A stretch of 64,000 nucleotides of DNA from Escherichia coli (GTDB taxonomy: Bacteria > Pseudomonadota > Gammaproteobacteria > Enterobacterales > Enterobacteriaceae), in NCBI RefSeq assembly GCF_003334355.1, contig NZ_QOWP01000012.1. One strand, given 5' to 3'. Positions 453 through 18,807 of the stretch are shown one piece after another; position 1 is the stretch's first letter, and the number at the start of each line of letters is the position of its first letter. The notes below the pieces were generated by a model. It saw only the letters and a program-made list of their open reading frames with translations, made no database searches and was not told where the DNA came from. Both the position numbers and the translations under genes were made by a program.

Positions 453-1211
453 ATGGAAACACGTCGCGAAGAGCGTATCGGGCAGCTGCTGCAAGAATTA
501 AAACGCAGCGATAAGTTACATCTTAAAGACGCCGCCGCCCTGCTTGGGGTTTCGGAGATGACGATTCGTCGCGATCTGAACAACCACAGTGCGCCCGTCG
601 TTTTGCTCGGCGGCTATATTGTTCTGGAACCGCGCAGTGCCAGCCATTACCTGTTAAGCGATCAAAAATCCCGCCTGGTGGAAGAAAAACGCCGGGCGGC
701 AAAACTGGCTGCGACGCTGGTAGAACCCGATCAGACCCTCTTTTTTGACTGTGGCACCACCACGCCGTGGATTATTGAAGCGATTGATAATGAAATCCCT
801 TTTACCGCCGTTTGTTATTCGCTAAATACCTTTCTGGCGCTGAAAGAGAAACCCCATTGCCGCGCGTTTCTTTGCGGTGGTGAATTTCACGCCAGCAACG
901 CCATTTTCAAACCCATCGATTTTCAGCAAACGCTGAATAATTTTTGCCCGGATATCGCTTTCTATTCTGCGGCGGGCGTGCATGTCAGTAAAGGCGCTAC
1001 CTGTTTTAATCTTGAAGAGTTGCCGGTAAAACACTGGGCCATGTCGATGGCGCAAAAGCATGTGCTGGTTGTCGACCACAGTAAATTTGGCAAGGTGCGT
1101 CCGGCGCGCATGGGTGACCTGAAACGCTTTGATATTGTGGTGAGCGATTGTTGCCCGGAAGATGAGTATGTGAAGTACGCGCAGACGCAGCGCATTAAGT
1201 TGATGTATTAA
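453..1211 (+). CDS. deoR: DeoR transcriptional repressor of the deo operon
   Basis: 252-aa ORF; N-terminal HTH (LLGVSEMTIRRDL) and DeoR-type sugar-binding C-domain; recognised sequence. Confidence 0.93.
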   Translation: METRREERIGQLLQELKRSDKLHLKDAAALLGVSEMTIRRDLNNHSAPVVLLGGYIVLEPRSASHYLLSDQKSRLVEEKRRAAKLAATLVEPDQTLFFDCGTTTPWIIEAIDNEIPFTAVCYSLNTFLALKEKPHCRAFLCGGEFHASNAIFKPIDFQQTLNNFCPDIAFYSAAGVHVSKGATCFNLEELPVKHWAMSMAQKHVLVVDHSKFGKVRPARMGDLKRFDIVVSDCCPEDEYVKYAQTQRIKLMY

Positions 1212-1217
1212 TGACGT

Positions 1218-1250
1218 ATAACCGGATGACGTTTCGCGCCATCCGGTTAT
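1218..1250. terminator. Bidirectional hairpin terminator between convergent deoR and dacC
   Basis: Inverted repeat ataaccggatg...catccggttat in the 46-bp convergent gap. Confidence 0.6.
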
Positions 1251-1257
1251 CAGAAGA

Positions 1258-2460
1258 TTAAGAGAACCAGCTGCCGAACCACTGATGGAATTTCATCATC
1301 ACGAAATCCCACACCCGACCAAAGAATCCGCCCTCTTCCACATTTTCCATCACGATCAGCGGACGCTGCTCAATGGATTTACCGTTAAGCTGGAAATCAA
1401 TGGTCCCGACAACCTGACCTTTTTTCAGCGGTGCGGTAAGCTGCGGTTCCGTTAACGTATAACTCGCTTTCAGGTTTTTCAGCTGCCCACGCGGTATGGT
1501 CACTGAGCCCGCTTCACCTGCCCCGAGATTCACTTCGCTCTTATCACCAAACCAGACGCGCTGAGTCACAAAGGTGGCATCAGGTTTAATTGGCGTCACG
1601 GTTTCAAAGAAGCGGAAACCCCAGGTCAATAATTTCTCAGACTCATTAAAACGGATACGGTCAGTTTTCGCCCCCAGCACTACGGAGATTAAACGCATAT
1701 CACCCTGGGTAGCCGAAGCAACCAGATTATATCCCGCACCTGCCGTGGTTCCTGTCTTCATGCCATCAACATTCAGATTGCTGCTCCACAGCAGACGGTT
1801 ACGGTTAGGCTGACGAATTTTGTTGAAGGTGAACTCTTTCTCTTTATGAATGGCGTACTCTTCCGGCACATCGTGGATCAATGCTTTACCCAGCAATGCC
1901 ATATCGCGCGCGGTACTGAACTGCCCCGGCGCATCCAGACCGTGCACCGTCTGGAAGGTAGTGTTGGTCAGACCCAGTTTTTTGGCATAACCATTCATCA
2001 AACCAATAAATGACTCCTGGCTCCCGGCAACGTAATCGGCCAGCGCAATACAGGCGTCATTACCGGACTGGATAATCACACCTTTGTTCAAGTCTGCCAC
2101 CGAAACCTGATCGCCCGGTTTGAGGAACATTACCGATGAACCACGCAGTGCCGGATTTCCCGTCGCCCAGGCATCTTTACCGACCGTCACCATATCGGTG
2201 AGTTTAATCTTATCGGCCTTAAGCGCCTGCCCAACCACATAGCTGGTCATGATTTTAGTCAGGCTCGCGGGATCCAGTTTCTCATCCGCGTTGCCTTCTG
2301 CCAGCACTTTACCGCTGGCGTAATCCATTAAAATCCATGCACGCGCATCCACGCTCGGCGCTTCAACGGTTTGTTCCGCCGCGAATGCCGTTGGGGCAAA
2401 AAGGAATAAAAATGCAGAACCCGCTGCAAGACCACGAAGGAGAGAGGAGTATTGCGTCAT
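1258..2460 (-). CDS. dacC: D-alanyl-D-alanine carboxypeptidase DacC (PBP6)
   Basis: ORF 1258..2481; start placed at [10 protein letters not shown] (signal peptide); SxxK motif SLTKIMT and SGN motif present; 400 aa. Confidence 0.93.
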
Positions 2461-2706
2461 AAATGCCACCCGAGTATCCATTCAAAAAAAATACGTTATA
2501 TCGCCGTATGATAAGTTCGGTGATTAATAACGCACACACAAACTTAAAGAAACCGTAAGTTGGTAAAGTTTTTAAAGTTTATGCAATATCCTGCCGCTTC
2601 GCTGCTTCTGGTGTCATTTTTTTGCCAGCTGTTGCTTAAAAGTTAACTTTACTTCACCATCGGAGTCCTGTTCAGCCTGTGGCTGCCTGTCGGAAAAGGG
2701 GTGAGT

Positions 2707-3333
2707 ATGATTACGCTGTGGGGTCGGAATAATTCAACTAACGTAAAAAAAGTATTGCTGACGCTCGAAGAACTGGAACTACCTTATGAGCAAATTCTCG
2801 CGGGCCGTGAGTTTGGGATAAATCACGATGCTGATTTTCTGGCGATGAACCCTAACGGGCTGGTGCCGTTGTTGCGTGACGACGAAAGTGATCTCATTCT
2901 TTGGGAATCAAACGCCATTGTCCGCTATCTGGCGGCACAGTACGGGCAAAAACGCCTGTGGATCGACTCACCGGCACGTCGTGCGGAAGCGGAAAAATGG
3001 ATGGACTGGGCAAACCAGACGCTCAGTAATGCTCATCGCGGGATCCTGATGGGATTAGTCAGAACACCACCGGAAGAGCGCGATCAGGCCGCCATTGATG
3101 CCAGTTGCAAAGAGTGCGACGCCCTGTTTGCCCTGCTCGATGCGGAACTGGCAAAAGTAAAATGGTTCTCTGGCGACGAGTTTGGTGTGGGCGATATCGC
3201 TATCGCACCGTTCATCTACAATTTGTTTAACGTTGGCCTGACCTGGACACCGCGTCCAAATCTGCAACGCTGGTATCAGCAACTCACTGAACGCCCCGCA
3301 GTGCGCAAAGTGGTGATGATTCCCGTTAGCTAA
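2707..3333 (+). CDS. gstB: Glutathione S-transferase GstB
   Basis: ORF 2701..3333; start placed at [10 protein letters not shown]; GST N- and C-domains; 208 aa. Confidence 0.92.
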
Positions 3334-4445
3334 TTGCGTGGGCTAACTTTAAGTAATTCCCCACTGGACTCGTCGGTGAGAACGTATAAATAACCGTCGG
3401 GTCCAGTGCGAACATCACGAATTCGCTGCCCTCTGTCCGTTAAAATACGGCCATCTTCTGTCACTTTGTCGCCGTTGACGCTCATCACAATGACATCTTT
3501 ATCTTTCAGCGCGCCAATAAATAATTTTTGCTGCCACTGGGGGAATTTATCGCTGTTATAGAAGGCCATGCCGCTCACAGCGGGCGAATCTTTCCAGTAA
3601 AAAACAGGTTGCTCGGTCCCGGCGACGATCTCCCCTTTCGCTTCCGGTATCTTAAAGCCTGAATAGTTGATTCCCCAGGTTGCCAGCGGCCAGCCGTAGT
3701 TTTTGCCTTTTTGCGGGATATTAATTTCATCACCACCGCGCGGGCCATGTTCATTCAGCCACAGTGCATTACTCCACGGATTCATCGCCATTCCTTGCGG
3801 ATTACGAATGCCATAAGACCAGATCTCGGCGCGCGCACCGGATTCCTTTATAAAAGGATTATCATCCGGGATTTCGCCCTGGTCGGTCAGACGCACCAGT
3901 TTGCCCTGTAATTTATCCAGATCCTGCGCCGTCGGGCGCTGATTGTTTTCGCCCAGAGCAATAAAAAGATAACCTTTACCGTCGAATACCAGCCGCCCGC
4001 CAAAATGGTTGCCGGTAGACAGTTTTGGCATCTGGCGAAAGACGGTGCGGAAGTCGGTCACTTTTGAGAGATCATCACTTAAGCGGCCATAACCCACAGC
4101 AGTTCCGGCTTTGCCATCATCGCCAACTTCGGAATAACTTAACCAGATGCGGCGAGACTGAGCAAAATCAGGCGCTAAAACCACGTCCAGCAGGCCGCCC
4201 TGCCCGTGCGCCCAAACGTCCGGCACTCCGGAAAGCGGCGCAGATAATCCTTTTCCTGCTTGCCAGTGACGCAACTCGCCGCCGCGCAGAGTGATTAACA
4301 TACCGTGATTATCGGGTAAAAAGGCCAGTGACCAGGGATGGTCGAGTTTGTCTTGCAGTACTTCGACATTTACCGTTGCAGGAGCCGCCCAGAGAGCGGA
4401 AGAAAGACAAATAAGGGGCACAAGGAAAAAGAATGGTCGATGCAT
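3330..4445 (-). CDS. yliI: Soluble aldose sugar dehydrogenase YliI (PQQ-dependent, beta-propeller)
   Basis: 371-aa ORF with signal peptide; recognised sequence; stop codon overlaps gstB stop by 4 bp (convergent). Confidence 0.92.
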
Positions 4446-4504
4446 AACGCCTCCGGATTGACTCTGGCTTAAAGCGTAGTCAGTGGAGGAGATAACAAAT
4501 TCAT

Positions 4505-4550
4505 TTTTACAAAAACTTAAACATGAAGGGGGAGACGCTTTCTCCCCCTT
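4505..4550 (-). terminator. Intrinsic terminator downstream of bssR
   Basis: GC-rich hairpin aagggggaga...tctccccctt followed by a U-rich run on the minus strand. Confidence 0.6.
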
Positions 4551-4555
4551 AGTTT

Positions 4556-4939
4556 TCAGGCCTTCTCAAGCATGGCGTGCTTCTGCAGGCTCTGGATACT
4601 CAGCGTTAAGCTCATCAGACAATTTTCAAGCTTATCGGCGTTGACGGTAATAACAGTCGGGCAATCATGGTGCCCACTCATCAAACATACTGCGGCTGTC
4701 GCTAATGCTTCTTCAGCATGATGAAGAGCACTCCACTCTTCCTGATCCAGATGAAGATTCAACCGCAGCGATTTATCGTGCAGTTCGCGATTCAGTTTAA
4801 AAAAGTTATCTCGTAGATGATTGCTTTCGCTGACGGACATGTATCCTTTTGCCTTCCTCAGTTGCACGTATGCGGCGAGGTCAACGCGTGCGTCGATCAA
4901 CCGGTTCAGCAGATCGATTCGCTGTCTGTCAACGAACAT
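4556..4939 (-). CDS. bssR: Biofilm regulator BssR
   Basis: ORF 4556..4972; start placed at MFVDRQRIDLL; 127 aa. Confidence 0.9.
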   Translation of the reverse strand: MFVDRQRIDLLNRLIDARVDLAAYVQLRKAKGYMSVSESNHLRDNFFKLNRELHDKSLRLNLHLDQEEWSALHHAEEALATAAVCLMSGHHDCPTVITVNADKLENCLMSLTLSIQSLQKHAMLEKA

Positions 4940-13795: not shown

Positions 13796-15667
13796 TTATC
13801 TACGCATGAATGCGTATTCTGATTGTGGTTGTGCGACGTAATGCCCCGGCCCGACGCATTGCAACGAGACGGCTGCCACCTCTTCGCCACGCAGATGAAT
13901 ATTGCTGGGAAGATCGTCCGACAGCAGTACACGCTGCGGTCGTTGTCGGGACGGTTCAGCGACCGGAACTGCCGCCAGTAATTTACGCGTATAAGGATGC
14001 TGCGGGTTTTCGAAGACCGCGCGCCGTGGACCAATTTCAACAATTTGCCCGAGATACATCACCGCCACACGATGACTAATCCGCTCTACCACGGCCATAT
14101 CGTGGGAGATAAACAGATACGCAATGCCGAAATCACGCTGGAGATCGAGCAACAAGTTGATAATCTGCCCGCGAATAGAAACATCCAGCGCCGAAACGGC
14201 TTCGTCGGCAATGATCACTTTTGGATTCAATGCCAACGCGCGAGCAATGCAGATGCGCTGGCGCTGACCGCCGGAAAACTCATGCGGGTAACGCCAGGCA
14301 TGTTCAGGTAACAGGCCCACGCGCTCCAGCAACCACGCAACGCGTGCAGCCGCGTCTTTACCTGGCAATAAACCGTGTACACGCAGCGGTTCGATAATCG
14401 AATCACCGATGGTCTGACGTGGGTCCAGCGAAGCGTAAGGGTCCTGAAAAATAAACTGAATATCCCGGCGCAATGCCTGAAGTTTGCCGGGTGACAAGGT
14501 ATCGATTCTCTGACCGTTAAAGATAATTTCGCCGCCCTGCGATTCGACCAGGCGCAGCAACGCCCGCCCGGTAGTGGATTTACCGCTGCCAGACTCGCCC
14601 ACCAGCGATAGCGTTTCGCCAGGCCAGAGATCAAAACTGACTTTCTCAACGGCATGCACTTCCCGCGTTACGCGATTCAACAAACCGCTGCGCAAAGGGA
14701 AACGGGTGACAAGATTACGCACTCGTAAAACAGGTTCGCCATCCACCACCGTTTTCTGCTCGATGGGGGGGGCCTGTTTCGCTGGATGTTCAAGCGATAT
14801 CAACGGGAAACGTCGGGGATAATCTAACCCTTTCATCGCACCAAGTTGCGGAACAGCAGCTAACAGCGCACGGGTGTAAGGATGTTGCGGTGCATGAAAA
14901 ATCTGTTCGACGGTACCCGTTTCCACCGCCTCGCCCTGATACATCACCAGTACCCGATCGGCAATCTCTGCCACCACGCCCATATCGTGAGTGATAAAGA
15001 TAACGCCCATCGACATCTCTTTTTGCAATACTTTGATTAATTGCAGGATCTGCGCCTGAATAGTGACATCCAGCGCGGTGGTTGGCTCATCGGCAATCAG
15101 CACCGCCGGGCGGCATGACAGCGCCATCGCAATCATCACTCGCTGGCGCATCCCGCCAGAGAGTTGATGCGGATAACGTGAAAGAATGGTTTGTGCCTCA
15201 GGAATGCGTACCTGATCCAGCATCCGCTTCGCCTCGACCATCGCTTCTTCACGACTGGCGTTCTGATGCAGACGAATTGATTCGGCAATCTGTTCACCCA
15301 CAGTAAATACCGGGTTCAGCGATGTCATCGGCTCCTGAAATATCATCGCCATATCCGCACCGCGAACATGGCGCATTTGTGCAGCGTTCTGCTCGCTAAG
15401 TTCAATCACTTCGCGACTGCGCCGCTGCAACAGCATTTTATCGCACTGTACTAAACCGCCCGCCTGTTCCAACAGGCGCATCAATGCCAACGCAGTCACT
15501 GACTTACCGGAGCCGGATTCGCCAACAATTGCCAGCGTCTCACCGCGTTGCAGACTAAAAGAGAGATTGCGGACCGCAGCTATTTTCTGCTGGTCCTGCA
15601 TAAAGGCAATATTCAGATTTTCAACCGCCAGCACATTACCGGCATCAAGTTCATCACTGTGTGGCAA
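13796..15667 (-). CDS. gsiA: Glutathione ABC transporter ATPase GsiA (two ATPase domains)
   Basis: Two Walker A motifs (GESGSGKS twice); start placed at TTG (15665..15667) giving MPHSDELD and 623 aa; overlaps iaaA 3' end by 14 bp. Confidence 0.88.
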
Positions 15668-16619
15668 CGGTGTCCCCTTTTTCACGGTAGATACCGGTGA
15701 TTGGCGTATCGCCTGCGTAGCCCCAGGCGCGATACATTCCTTCGGTGTTAAACGGTAGCGCGACATTCCCTTCATGGTCGATAGCGATTAAGCCACCGCT
15801 ACCGCCAAGCGCAGGGAGTTTTTCCATTACTACCCGCTCGCAGGCTTCCGCGAGACTTAATCCGCCGTAATCCATTAACGCGGCGATGTCATATGCCGCC
15901 AGCGCGCGGATGAAGACTTCGCCCGTGCCGGTACAAGAAACCGCCACACTGGCGTTATTGGCGTAGCATCCGGCACCCACTAAGGGACTATCGCCAACTC
16001 GTCCGGGTAATTTATTGGTCATTCCGCCTGTGGACGTGGCTGCCGCCAAATTGCCGTCTAAATCCAACGCCACGGCCCCCACGGTGCCCATTTTCTGTTT
16101 TTCATCCAGTGGCGCACCGCTATGGTCGAGGACGGTTGCCCCTTCCTTGCGCGCTGCCAGTAGTTGTTCATAACGCAAAGGCGTGGAGAAAATCTCCGGC
16201 GAGACGCGCTCCATGCCACGAGCAAACGCAAAATTTTCTGCCCCTTCGCCAATCATCATCACATGCGGGCTTTGCTCCATCACCAGCCGGGCGGCAAGAA
16301 CCGGATTACGCAGATGACTAACGCCCGCCACCGCACCGGCTTTCAGGGTGTTACCATCCATCACACAGGCGTCCAGTTCATGGGTTTCATCACGCGTAAA
16401 GACAGCGCCAATTCCGGCGTTAAACAGTGGACACTCTTCCAGCAGACGCACCGCTTCCGTCACCACATCCAGCGCACTTTCGCCCGCTTCCAGCATTTTC
16501 TGCCCGGTTTCAACAATGGCAGACAACGCCTCAATGTAGCGTAATTCCTGTTGCAGACTCATCTGCGCGCGGCTAATTGCACCTGCGCCACCATGAATTG
16601 CAATGACTGCTTTGCCCAT
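15654..16619 (-). CDS. iaaA: Isoaspartyl dipeptidase / L-asparaginase IaaA (Ntn hydrolase)
   Basis: 321-aa ORF; Ntn-hydrolase autoprocessing region (GTVGAVALD); recognised sequence. Confidence 0.94.
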
Positions 16620-16822
16620 AGTATTCGTCCATTAAGGGTGGCTCGCCACTTTTGCTATAAATATCAGAATTTTTATGAATTACTCATTCAATTTTTGAAT
16701 ATAGAAAGATGGATATGGCATGTAAAGGCAGGAGCCAACGCTACGCCCGAGGTGGCATACAGTCTGTGGCGTTTTTCTGACATAATAGGCAAATTCGATT
16801 TTGCCTCCGCAGGAGTGTTTTC

Positions 16823-18058
16823 ATGGAATTTACCACCGGATTGATGTCGCTCGACACCGCGCTTAATGAGATGCTTTCTCGCGTTACCCCATTGACCACC
16901 CAGGAAACGCTGCCACTGGTACAGTGTTTTGGTCGTATTCTGGCGAGCGATGTCGTTTCGCCGCTTGATGTTCCGGGGTTTGACAACTCCGCAATGGACG
17001 GCTACGCGGTGCGTTTAGCCGATATTGCCTCCGGGCAACCGCTGCCCGTTGCCGGTAAATCCTTTGCCGGTCAGCCATACCATGGTGAATGGCCTGCGGG
17101 CACCTGCATTCGTATTATGACCGGTGCGCCGGTGCCGGAAGGCTGCGAAGCGGTGGTGATGCAGGAGCAGACTGAACAAACGGACAATGGCGTGCGTTTT
17201 ACTGCTGAAGTGCGTAGCGGGCAAAATATTCGCCGTCGCGGTGAAGATATCTCTGCAGGTGCGGTTGTTTTCCCGGCGGGAACTCGCCTGACTACCGCTG
17301 AACTGCCAGTGATTGCTTCACTGGGGATTGCCGAAGTTCCGGTGATTCGTAAAGTGCGTGTAGCGCTTTTTTCTACCGGTGATGAACTCCAGTTGCCCGG
17401 TCAGCCACTGGGCGATGGCCAAATCTACGATACCAACCGTCTCGCCGTACACCTGATGTTAGAACAGCTGGGTTGCGAGGTAATCAACTTAGGGATTATC
17501 CGCGACGATCCCCATGCCCTGCGCGCCGCATTTATTGAAGCCGACAGCCAGGCGGATGTAGTGATCAGTTCCGGCGGTGTTTCAGTGGGTGAAGCGGATT
17601 ACACCAAAACGATTCTTGAAGAGCTGGGGGAGATCGCCTTCTGGAAGCTGGCGATTAAACCAGGTAAACCGTTCGCGTTCGGTAAACTCAGCAATAGCTG
17701 GTTCTGCGGCCTGCCGGGCAACCCGGTTTCAGCGACGCTGACCTTCTATCAACTGGTACAGCCTTTGCTGGCAAAACTAAGCGGCAACACCGCCAGCGGC
17801 CTGCCCGCGCGCCAGCGCGTACGCACAGCGTCCCGCCTGAAAAAAACGCCAGGACGTCTTGATTTCCAGCGCGGCGTGCTGCACCGCAACGCCGATGGCG
17901 AACTGGAAGTGACGACCACCGGACATCAGGGCTCACATATATTCAGCTCCTTTAGCCTCGGCAACTGCTTTATCGTACTGGAACGCGATCGCGGCAATGT
18001 GGAAGTGGGCGAATGGGTGGAAGTAGAACCGTTTAACGCGTTGTTCGGAGGCCTGTAA
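16823..18058 (+). CDS. moeA: Molybdopterin molybdenumtransferase MoeA
   Basis: 411-aa ORF; recognised sequence; stop overlaps moeB start (ATG at 18058). Confidence 0.95.
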
Positions 18059-18807
18059 TGGCGGAACTCAGCGATCAGGAGATGCTGCGCTACAACCGGC
18101 AAATCATTCTGCGCGGTTTTGATTTTGACGGTCAGGAGGCGCTAAAAGATTCTCGTGTGCTGGTAGTCGGCCTCGGTGGACTCGGCTGCGCAGCTTCGCA
18201 GTATCTGGCAAGCGCCGGTGTCGGCAACCTGACGCTGCTCGACTTCGACTCGGTTTCGCTCTCGAATCTGCAACGCCAGACGCTGCACAGTGATGCCACG
18301 GTCGGGCAACCGAAGGTGGAATCCGCCCGTGACGCCCTGGCGCGGATCAATCCACATATCGCGATTACGCCAGTCAATGCACTGCTGGATGACGCAGAAC
18401 TTGCAGCATTGATTGCTGAACACGATCTGGTGCTCGACTGTACGGATAACGTTGCGGTACGTAATCAACTGAACGCAGGCTGTTTTGCCGCGAAGGTGCC
18501 GCTGGTTTCCGGCGCGGCAATTCGTATGGAAGGGCAAATCACGGTCTTCACTTATCAGGACGGCGAACCGTGCTATCGCTGCCTTAGCCGTTTGTTTGGC
18601 GAGAACGCATTAACCTGCGTAGAAGCAGGCGTGATGGCACCGTTGATCGGCGTAATTGGTTCGTTGCAGGCAATGGAAGCGATCAAACTGCTGGCAGGTT
18701 ATGGCAAACCGGCCAGCGGGAAAATCGTCATGTACGATGCGATGACCTGTCAGTTTCGCGAAATGAAACTGATGCGCAATCCGGGGTGTGAGGTGTGCGG
18801 GCAGTAA
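18058..18807 (+). CDS. moeB: Molybdopterin-synthase adenylyltransferase MoeB
   Basis: 249-aa ORF; ThiF/MoeB nucleotide-binding motif (GLGGLGC) and C-terminal CxxC pairs. Confidence 0.95.
   Translation: MAELSDQEMLRYNRQIILRGFDFDGQEALKDSRVLVVGLGGLGCAASQYLASAGVGNLTLLDFDSVSLSNLQRQTLHSDATVGQPKVESARDALARINPHIAITPVNALLDDAELAALIAEHDLVLDCTDNVAVRNQLNAGCFAAKVPLVSGAAIRMEGQITVFTYQDGEPCYRCLSRLFGENALTCVEAGVMAPLIGVIGSLQAMEAIKLLAGYGKPASGKIVMYDAMTCQFREMKLMRNPGCEVCGQ

Follow-up and report, generated by a model that had tools for sequence, protein, structure and literature searches.

The TTG start of Escherichia coli gsiA within the 3′ end of iaaA, and a probable stop-loss origin of the 14-nt overlap

Introduction

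The closest described counterpart of the locus studied here is gsiA of Escherichia coli K-12 (b0829, formerly yliA). In current records (U00096.3/NC_000913.3, RefSeq PGAP) this gene begins at a TTG codon, encodes a product of 623 amino acids (aa), and overlaps the preceding gene, iaaA (b0828), by 14 nt. Its annotated start has not always been the same. The 2006 K-12 record (U00096.2) had it at a GTG 33 nt downstream from the TTG (codon +11, with the TTG as codon 0), the 2014 record shifted it from the GTG to the TTG, and in NC_000913.3 it stands at position 867520 (INRI-seq Table S2). Nakahigashi et al. (2016; PMC4909307, Table S2, row 8) reported for yliA (= gsiA) a new initiation site, a TTG 33 nt upstream of the 2006 start; the protein deduced from their tetracycline-inhibited ribosome profiling (TetRP) begins MPHSDELD and agrees with the 2014 re-annotation. 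The supplement of Huber et al. (2023) lists the pair as NGHB#788 (b0828 iaaA, b0829 gsiA), with a distance of -14 and the entry "not" under CMPLX.

Several kinds of described gene junction provide further points of comparison. Canonical translationally coupled pairs are co-directional, have the start and Shine-Dalgarno (SD) sequence of the second gene within the upstream reading frame, and lie at very short distances, the spacings -4 (NTGA), -1 (TGATG or TAATG), and -8 being enriched. Short same-strand overlaps arise through loss of the upstream stop codon in a general model reportedly put forward by Fukuda and colleagues in 2003. For the class of E. coli operon junctions with a +10 nt spacer that contains an SD, independent initiation is considered likely (Huber et al. 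2023).

Here, we compare one copy of the iaaA-gsiA junction with these systems. Its start codon, 623-aa product, and 14-nt overlap are identical to those of K-12. A gsiA start at the TTG in the last iaaA codons, and not at the ATG further upstream, is strongly supported by RefSeq, NC_000913.3, TetRP, and comparative tests. Since annotations have used this start as standard from 2014 on, and published ribosome profiling stands behind it, the finding is correct but ordinary, and already known; a stop-loss explanation of the overlap is a small, tidy addition to it. Very probably, gsiA is translated from the UUG on a polycistronic iaaA-gsiABCD mRNA, with the UUG selected by its SD and a 623-aa product beginning fMet-Pro-His-Ser-Asp, and the overlap is a by-product of stop loss and not a coupling device.

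Genes and proteins at the junction

The window analysed is a 64,000-nt stretch of E. coli DNA (contig NZ_QOWP01000012.1 of assembly GCF_003334355.1), and all coordinates below are positions within it. The features used in this study are the following:

13796..15667, minus strand: coding sequence of gsiA as read from the TTG, 623 codons and a stop (open reading frame [ORF] list, RefSeq boundaries in three E. coli genomes, NF007613)
15654..16619, minus strand: iaaA coding sequence, 321 codons plus TGA, isoaspartyl/beta-aspartyl peptidase (ORF list, RefSeq, NF007589, EcAIII structures)
15654..15667, minus strand: iaaA/gsiA overlap, 14 nt, GT TGC CAC ACA GTG A, reading frames offset; identical in RefSeq
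15665..15667, minus strand: gsiA initiation codon TTG (TetRP peak; start-type codon at the homologous site in relatives)
15673..15679, minus strand: gsiA SD, AAGGGGA, 5 nt 5′ of the TTG and within iaaA codons; duplex with the anti-SD, -7.8 kcal/mol
15678..15680, minus strand: AAA, IaaA Lys314, at the position of the presumed ancestral iaaA stop TAA (ungapped junction alignment)
15654..15656, minus strand: current iaaA stop TGA, made from gsiA codons 4-5 (AGT GAT)
15773..15775, minus strand: upstream in-frame ATG, codon -36; rejected as gsiA start
15632..15634, minus strand: in-frame GTG, codon +11 (Val12), gsiA start in the 2006 K-12 annotation; rejected
16698..16726, minus strand: sigma-70-like promoter match upstream of iaaA, candidate operon promoter; a consensus match only

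The first-pass annotation, made from the letters and an ORF list, had put the gsiA start at a TTG inside the 3′ end of iaaA with a 14-bp overlap, and these coordinates agree with the sequence, the ORF list, and RefSeq. Its one oddity is that coordinates of minus-strand genes were written in plus-strand order. In each of the three genomes compared (one derived from K-12, one of ST131, and one from a divergent clinical isolate), RefSeq/PGAP gives iaaA as 982..1947 and begins gsiA, 1,872 nt long, at 1934, so that the overlap is again 14 nt. Polymorphisms relative to K-12 are few, for example IaaA Thr to Ile at 15700, and none is substantial. An 801-nt junction query matched all 5,426 complete E. 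coli genomes, with 94-100% coverage and at least 97% identity.

GsiA scores 1376.3 bits against the NCBIfam equivalog NF007613 (cutoff, 1077), its residues 1-623 aligning to model positions 1-623. It is the ATPase of a glutathione ABC importer and carries two ABC ATPase domains, both of the Dpp/Opp type, in one fused chain; residues ~12-277 and ~308-591 match DppD/OppD-type and DppF/OppF-type models and structures, respectively. IaaA scores 711 bits against NF007589 (cutoff, 567), aligned over residues 1-321 of 321, and matches the chains of PDB entries 2zak, 1jn9, and 1k2x (EcAIII) with E-values of 1e-89 to 1e-206.

In E. coli genomes, iaaA lies upstream of gsiA and gsiB downstream from it (RefSeq), the operon context being iaaA-gsiA-gsiB(-gsiC-gsiD); the operon is induced when glutathione is the only source of sulfur. 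A consensus scan of this strand between moeA and gsiA gave a single promoter-like match, 5′ of iaaA, and none within iaaA, a pattern that would fit, if weakly, co-transcription of iaaA and gsiA.

The gsiA start codon

The longest ORF in the gsiA frame runs from 15775 to 13796 on the minus strand, begins with ATG, and encodes 659 aa. Near the GsiA N-terminus, the in-frame start-type codons are ATG at -36 and -33, GTG at -6, TTG at 0, GTG at +11, and ATG at +22; no ATG therefore yields the conserved N-terminus. The TTG at 15667..15665 reads TTG CCA CAC AGT GAT GAA CTT GAT, that is, (M)PHSDELD, and translation and the ORF list confirm the 623-aa product. All of this had been claimed in the first-pass annotation, as had the 36 residues that a start at ATG 15775 would add (659 - 623 = 36). 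When the six codons were scored for an SD, the TTG was best (-7.8 kcal/mol), the other five ranging from +0.4 to -4.8 kcal/mol. The SD is retained in relatives as AAGGGG or AAGGAG.

Initiation-site profiling, proposed earlier as a check on this start, bears it out in one published data set. TetRP values at the gsiA TTG are 46.3, 140.5, and 70.6 in three samples, compared with 0, 0, and 2.98 at the 2006 GTG (PMC4909307); the method covered NUG codons up to 60 nt from the 2006 start and so did not reach the ATG at -36. The UUG thus has both a start-enriched profiling signal and an SD at functional spacing, as used to judge non-AUG initiation sites. Ribo-RET in vivo gave no signal at the gsiA start, a method in which 82% of annotated starts are missed (~18% detected). 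INRI-seq in vitro gave 0 CPM in five of five replicates with the template present at 151 CPM, and called no alternative site; its gsiA construct begins at -30, which leaves the ATG at -36 outside, and ~30% of annotated starts are missed (~70% detected). As iaaA and moeB likewise scored 0, the INRI-seq zero for gsiA is weak evidence. The data sets searched hold no N-terminal peptide of GsiA: The field "N-peptide found" is blank in PMC4909307 Table S2, the TRAINSPOTTER entries listed include an IaaA N-terminal peptide and none for GsiA, and the supplement of the Salmonella riboproteogenomics study has no gsiA entry. A search of structures for the N-terminus of a construct found no solved GsiA structure. 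Homologous ABC structures align with GsiA from residue 9-13, so that the TTG start leaves a normal short N-terminal tail.

For the comparative analysis, we retrieved 80 orthologous gsiA loci (Salmonella is not among them), 66 of which have an iaaA homolog directly upstream. At the site that corresponds to the E. coli TTG, 20 Enterobacteriaceae loci have TTG, GTG, or ATG: TTG in Escherichia including E. albertii, Citrobacter, Superficieibacter, and Pseudocitrobacter; GTG in Enterobacter, Lelliottia, Phytobacter, Siccibacter, and P. gergoviae; and ATG in Leclercia, Cedecea, Enterobacter sp. Ag1/R1, and Pluralibacter sp. None of the nine Escherichia/Citrobacter sequences that we compared departs from the TTG. 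Of 5423 E. coli genomes, 5130 share one identical sequence over the 59 nt between -31 and +28, and three sampled junction variants, differing at -4, -12, and -17, all keep the TTG intact. The codons of GsiA residues 2-4 have changed synonymously (that of Ser, for one, from AGT to TCT), and Pro-His-Ser is retained. The ortholog alignment suggested as a second check agrees with the TTG, with a start-type codon at the homologous site, Pro-His-Ser retained after it, and an extension that is poorly conserved. The NF007613 model likewise covers residues 1-623 and leaves the 36-aa extension unaligned, although this evidence is partly circular, since the model was built from sequences annotated with the TTG-equivalent start. 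GTG or TTG is the start in 15 of the 20 tabulated enterobacterial junctions, which are not phylogenetically independent; this hints that low initiation efficiency may be tolerated or favored for GsiA.

Among the alternatives, a start at the GTG of codon +11 (15634..15632), as in the 2006 annotation, would give a 612-aa protein with no iaaA overlap. We consider it very improbable. That it was once the annotated start (U00096.2), that GsiA has its conserved ABC domain from near residue 12 onward, and that many relatives have GTG at this codon are all in its favor, but the codon is GTA, GTT, or GTC in seven other loci, has no SD (-3.0 kcal/mol), and is preceded by residues 2-8 that are conserved as protein through synonymous changes. 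The TetRP counts point in the same direction (0/0/2.98 versus 46/140/71 at the TTG).

Initiation at ATG 15775..15773 is more improbable still and is effectively refuted. It would produce the 659-aa protein, with its first 36 codons dual-coding and a 122-nt overlap with iaaA. This is the first ATG of the longest ORF, the frame is open upstream to codon -40 in Escherichia and Citrobacter, and the codon lies outside both the TetRP search range and the INRI-seq construct. It has, however, no SD (-1.5 kcal/mol) and is absent in E. albertii, and the TetRP peak is at the TTG. Many relatives have in-frame stops 3-5 codons before codon 0; in six of the loci, a longer GsiA N-terminus is impossible because the frame is closed at this distance. 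Over the extension (-108 to -1), the Escherichia/Citrobacter clade has 35 variable columns, 28 of them at iaaA third positions, which are second positions of the gsiA frame. Only the iaaA frame is therefore under selection here. When the 36 codons of E. coli are set against those of Citrobacter or E. albertii, amino acid identity is 53%-61% in the gsiA frame, compared with 89%-94% in the iaaA frame.

The other start-type codons can be set aside, ATG -33 having an SD-like GAAGGGA that abuts it with zero spacer and being lost in three loci, GTG -6 having no SD and being lost in five loci and one E. coli variant, and ATG +22 having no SD and removing the first beta-strand of the ABC domain.

Beyond annotation quality, the result on the gsiA start matters little. 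It does show that a correct non-ATG start could be recovered by a reader without tools, and that the TTG, which in 2014 replaced the GTG of the 2006 K-12 record, is backed by ribosome profiling and comparative evidence.

Origin of the overlap

The iaaA-gsiA junction aligns without gaps across genera. In most of the sampled Enterobacteriaceae, IaaA ends in ...GIYRE, its stop codon is TAA, and 9-11 nt with GGAG or GGGGG separate this stop from the gsiA start. A TAA stands at this site in Leclercia, Enterobacter, Lelliottia, Phytobacter, Superficieibacter, Pseudocitrobacter, and Siccibacter; among the sampled genera, only Escherichia and Citrobacter have AAA in its place. The Leclercia junction (stop in square brackets, start in braces) and the E. 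coli junction aligned to it are as follows:

Leclercia: ...CGTGAA[TAA]GGGGGAAGGG{ATG}
E. coli: ...CGTGAAAAAGGGGACACCG{TTG}

The TAA is replaced by AAA in the second line, and spelled out, the E. coli junction is ...CGTGAA AAA GGGGACACCG TTG. Because the AAA stands exactly where the others have TAA, the iaaA stop appears to have been lost by a single T-to-A change. With the direction set by parsimony over the sampled genera (Salmonella apart), the alignment shows a stop loss that would have turned a +10 nt spacer into the 14-nt overlap and added eight residues, KGDTVATQ, to IaaA. Salmonella IaaA is 313 aa long, which would match the ancestral stop.

The junction may be compared with two of the described systems. 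Before the stop loss, it would have been the same as the "+10/11 nt" class of E. coli operon junctions (Huber et al. 2023), with the SD in a short spacer; the difference is that Escherichia and Citrobacter lost the stop, and the spacer is now translated as the IaaA tail. It does not differ from what the general model of overlaps through upstream stop loss describes, a single TAA-to-AAA change lengthening the ORF until its frame next meets a stop, within the downstream gene, and is in this respect a textbook example.

The junction has also taken other forms. Cedecea, Enterobacter sp. Ag1/R1, and Pluralibacter sp. have a -1 overlap (TGATG or TAATG), and the spacings sampled (+9 to +13, -1, and -14) occur with the operon kept throughout; the junction is evolutionarily labile.

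The residues of the IaaA tail vary (DT, DA, or ES) over the SD-to-start spacer, and VATQ is set by the gsiA start and the Pro-His-Ser codons. For this reason, the eight-residue tail seems simply to be carried along with the gsiA initiation region, and we infer that it is. For expression of the two proteins, the correct GsiA N-terminus is MPHSDELD, and the last eight residues of E. coli IaaA are specific to the lineage and result from reading through the gsiA ribosome-binding site.

Translation of gsiA and coupling to iaaA

The SD AAGGGGA with its 5-nt spacer, in the last iaaA codons, guides initiation to the gsiA UUG, and iaaA itself is read through the gsiA ribosome-binding site and start and ends at the TGA in gsiA codons 4-5. 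A ribosome completing iaaA would terminate 11 nt 3′ of the UUG. Since it would then cover the gsiA start region, iaaA translation probably modulates gsiA initiation: Initiation could benefit, if the ribosome melts local structure or steps back a short way and re-initiates, or suffer, if the ribosome blocks the site. With its non-AUG start, GsiA is probably made in small amounts. Translational coupling of iaaA and gsiA, which the first-pass annotation had read from the overlap, is on these grounds plausible. Our full-text literature search (gsiA/iaaA/yliA/ybiK) found no coupling experiment on this pair and no study of the gsiA start codon or the junction.

The pair resembles canonical coupled pairs in being co-directional, in having the gsiA start and SD within the upstream ORF, and in its very short distance. 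It differs in that its distance of -14 lies outside the enriched classes (-4, -1, and -8) and outside the range -8 to +10, and in that the partners do not belong to one complex; the -1 arrangement itself is present in Cedecea, Enterobacter sp. Ag1/R1, and Pluralibacter sp. We found no stable, conserved mRNA structure that would mask the ribosome-binding site, as an unfolding model would have it, in folds of the region -30 to +15 or of 130 nt around the junction: The first has a free energy of -9.7 kcal/mol, no stronger than shuffled sequences (z = -0.08), and the second has z = -1.38 against shuffles.

How far initiation at the UUG depends on iaaA translation is a separate question from where gsiA starts. 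One answer, to which we give an even chance, is that the start is independent and driven by its SD, the overlap being a neutral relic of stop loss and iaaA translation having little effect or a negative, occluding one. The strong, conserved SD at optimal spacing argues for this, as do the lability of the junction (+9 to +13, -1, and -14) without loss of the operon and the five enterobacterial loci with gsiA and no upstream iaaA; because of these loci, gsiA can evidently be expressed alone. The isolated start region, however, showed no de novo initiation in vitro (INRI-seq), and a ribosome-binding site inside a translated ORF is generally affected by that translation, as a review has it.

The opposite answer, that the TTG start depends strongly on iaaA translation, we regard as possible but hold only tentatively. 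Coupling would then be obligatory, achieved either by ribosomes that terminate, move back ~11-14 nt, and re-initiate or by ribosomes that unfold a hairpin containing the SD. Such a dependence would suit a start and SD that lie inside the iaaA ORF with the terminating ribosome 11 nt downstream, short stop-to-start distances being needed for coupling according to the literature, and it would suit a start codon that is, as general knowledge has it, intrinsically weaker. The SD is partly paired in the predicted fold of -30 to +15, but the pairing partners differ in Citrobacter, and the fold, as noted, does not exceed its shuffles. The isolated start region scored 0 CPM in vitro despite its strong SD, compared with a clear TetRP peak in vivo; this is not a controlled comparison, and the zero is shared with iaaA and moeB. 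Against obligatory coupling also stand the rarity of overlaps longer than the enriched spacings, the ancestral spacing of +10 with the SD in the spacer, and the fact that IaaA and GsiA do not form a complex with each other (Huber et al. 2023).

A more specific scenario, which we consider unlikely, combines stop loss and coupling. The TAA-to-AAA change would have made an independent +10 junction into one whose UUG serves mainly ribosomes that have just finished iaaA, through an unusual backward re-initiation over -14. If true, this would explain why the gsiA start is silent in vitro and active in vivo, and it would tie synthesis of the importer ATPase to that of the peptidase.

The spacings of +10, -1, and -14 among close relatives form a clean natural series, with which the effect of spacing on translational coupling could be tested.

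Conservation of gene order

Of the 80 orthologous gsiA loci (L004-L083), 66 have an iaaA homologue as the gene immediately preceding gsiA. Members of the Burkholderiales (Achromobacter, Bordetella, Paraburkholderia, Variovorax, and Cupriavidus) are among these 66, and the association of the peptidase with the glutathione importer therefore far predates the Enterobacteriaceae. Five enterobacterial loci (L009, L015, L017, L018, and L023) carry gsiA without an upstream iaaA; in two of them, L017 and L018, the GsiA N terminus differs, because translation is read from an ATG that precedes the aligned position by two codons.

The IaaA C terminus and the junction

In most Enterobacteriaceae IaaA ends in ...GIYRE, whereas in E. 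coli it continues to a final eight residues, KGDTVATQ (15654..15680, minus strand), a lineage-specific extension (loci L001-L008 compared with L011-L028). Comparison of the sequences indicates that this tail was created by a TAA-to-AAA change at codon 314. Residue 315 is the last residue of the IaaA beta subunit in one PDB entry, 2zal_B. In Siccibacter colletis (L027), iaaA and gsiA share one reading frame and are separated solely by a TAA and 9 nt; were the stop to be lost here, the result would be an IaaA-GsiA fusion rather than an out-of-frame overlap.

Variation among E. coli strains

At position 15700 (minus strand), within ...GDTP[T/I]TGIY..., IaaA of the window has Ile (ATC) in place of the Thr (ACC) encoded by K-12 and by the other E. 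coli loci in the comparison; this difference is a strain polymorphism. In E. coli strain ExPEC (L086, NZ_CM172609.1), gsiA is annotated in two pieces:

2532..4626, comprising a 510-aa product named "ATP-binding cassette domain-containing protein" and a partial pseudogene

Either a frameshift inside gsiA or an error in sequencing it is the likely source of the split; the annotation still uses the TTG start. Across the E. coli genome collection, five matches to the iaaA-gsiA junction lie in plasmid-labelled records, and one genome carries the junction in two copies; these cases may reflect misassigned replicons or duplication.

Neighboring genes and putative alternative initiation sites

A second overlapping pair lies nearby on the plus strand:

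16823..18058, plus strand, moeA
18058..18807, plus strand, moeB

The two genes overlap by 1 nt, at position 18058, the canonical -1 spacing for coupling, and their distance is likewise given as -1 by Huber et al. (2023). The MoeB start has 0 CPM in the in vitro initiation profiling (INRI-seq). Table S3 of the INRI-seq study also lists two putative alternative starts called in vitro: an in-frame ATT 15 nt into iaaA (866582 in K-12 NC_000913.3 numbering) and an out-of-frame ATT 8 nt into gsiD (871897; 157 CPM).
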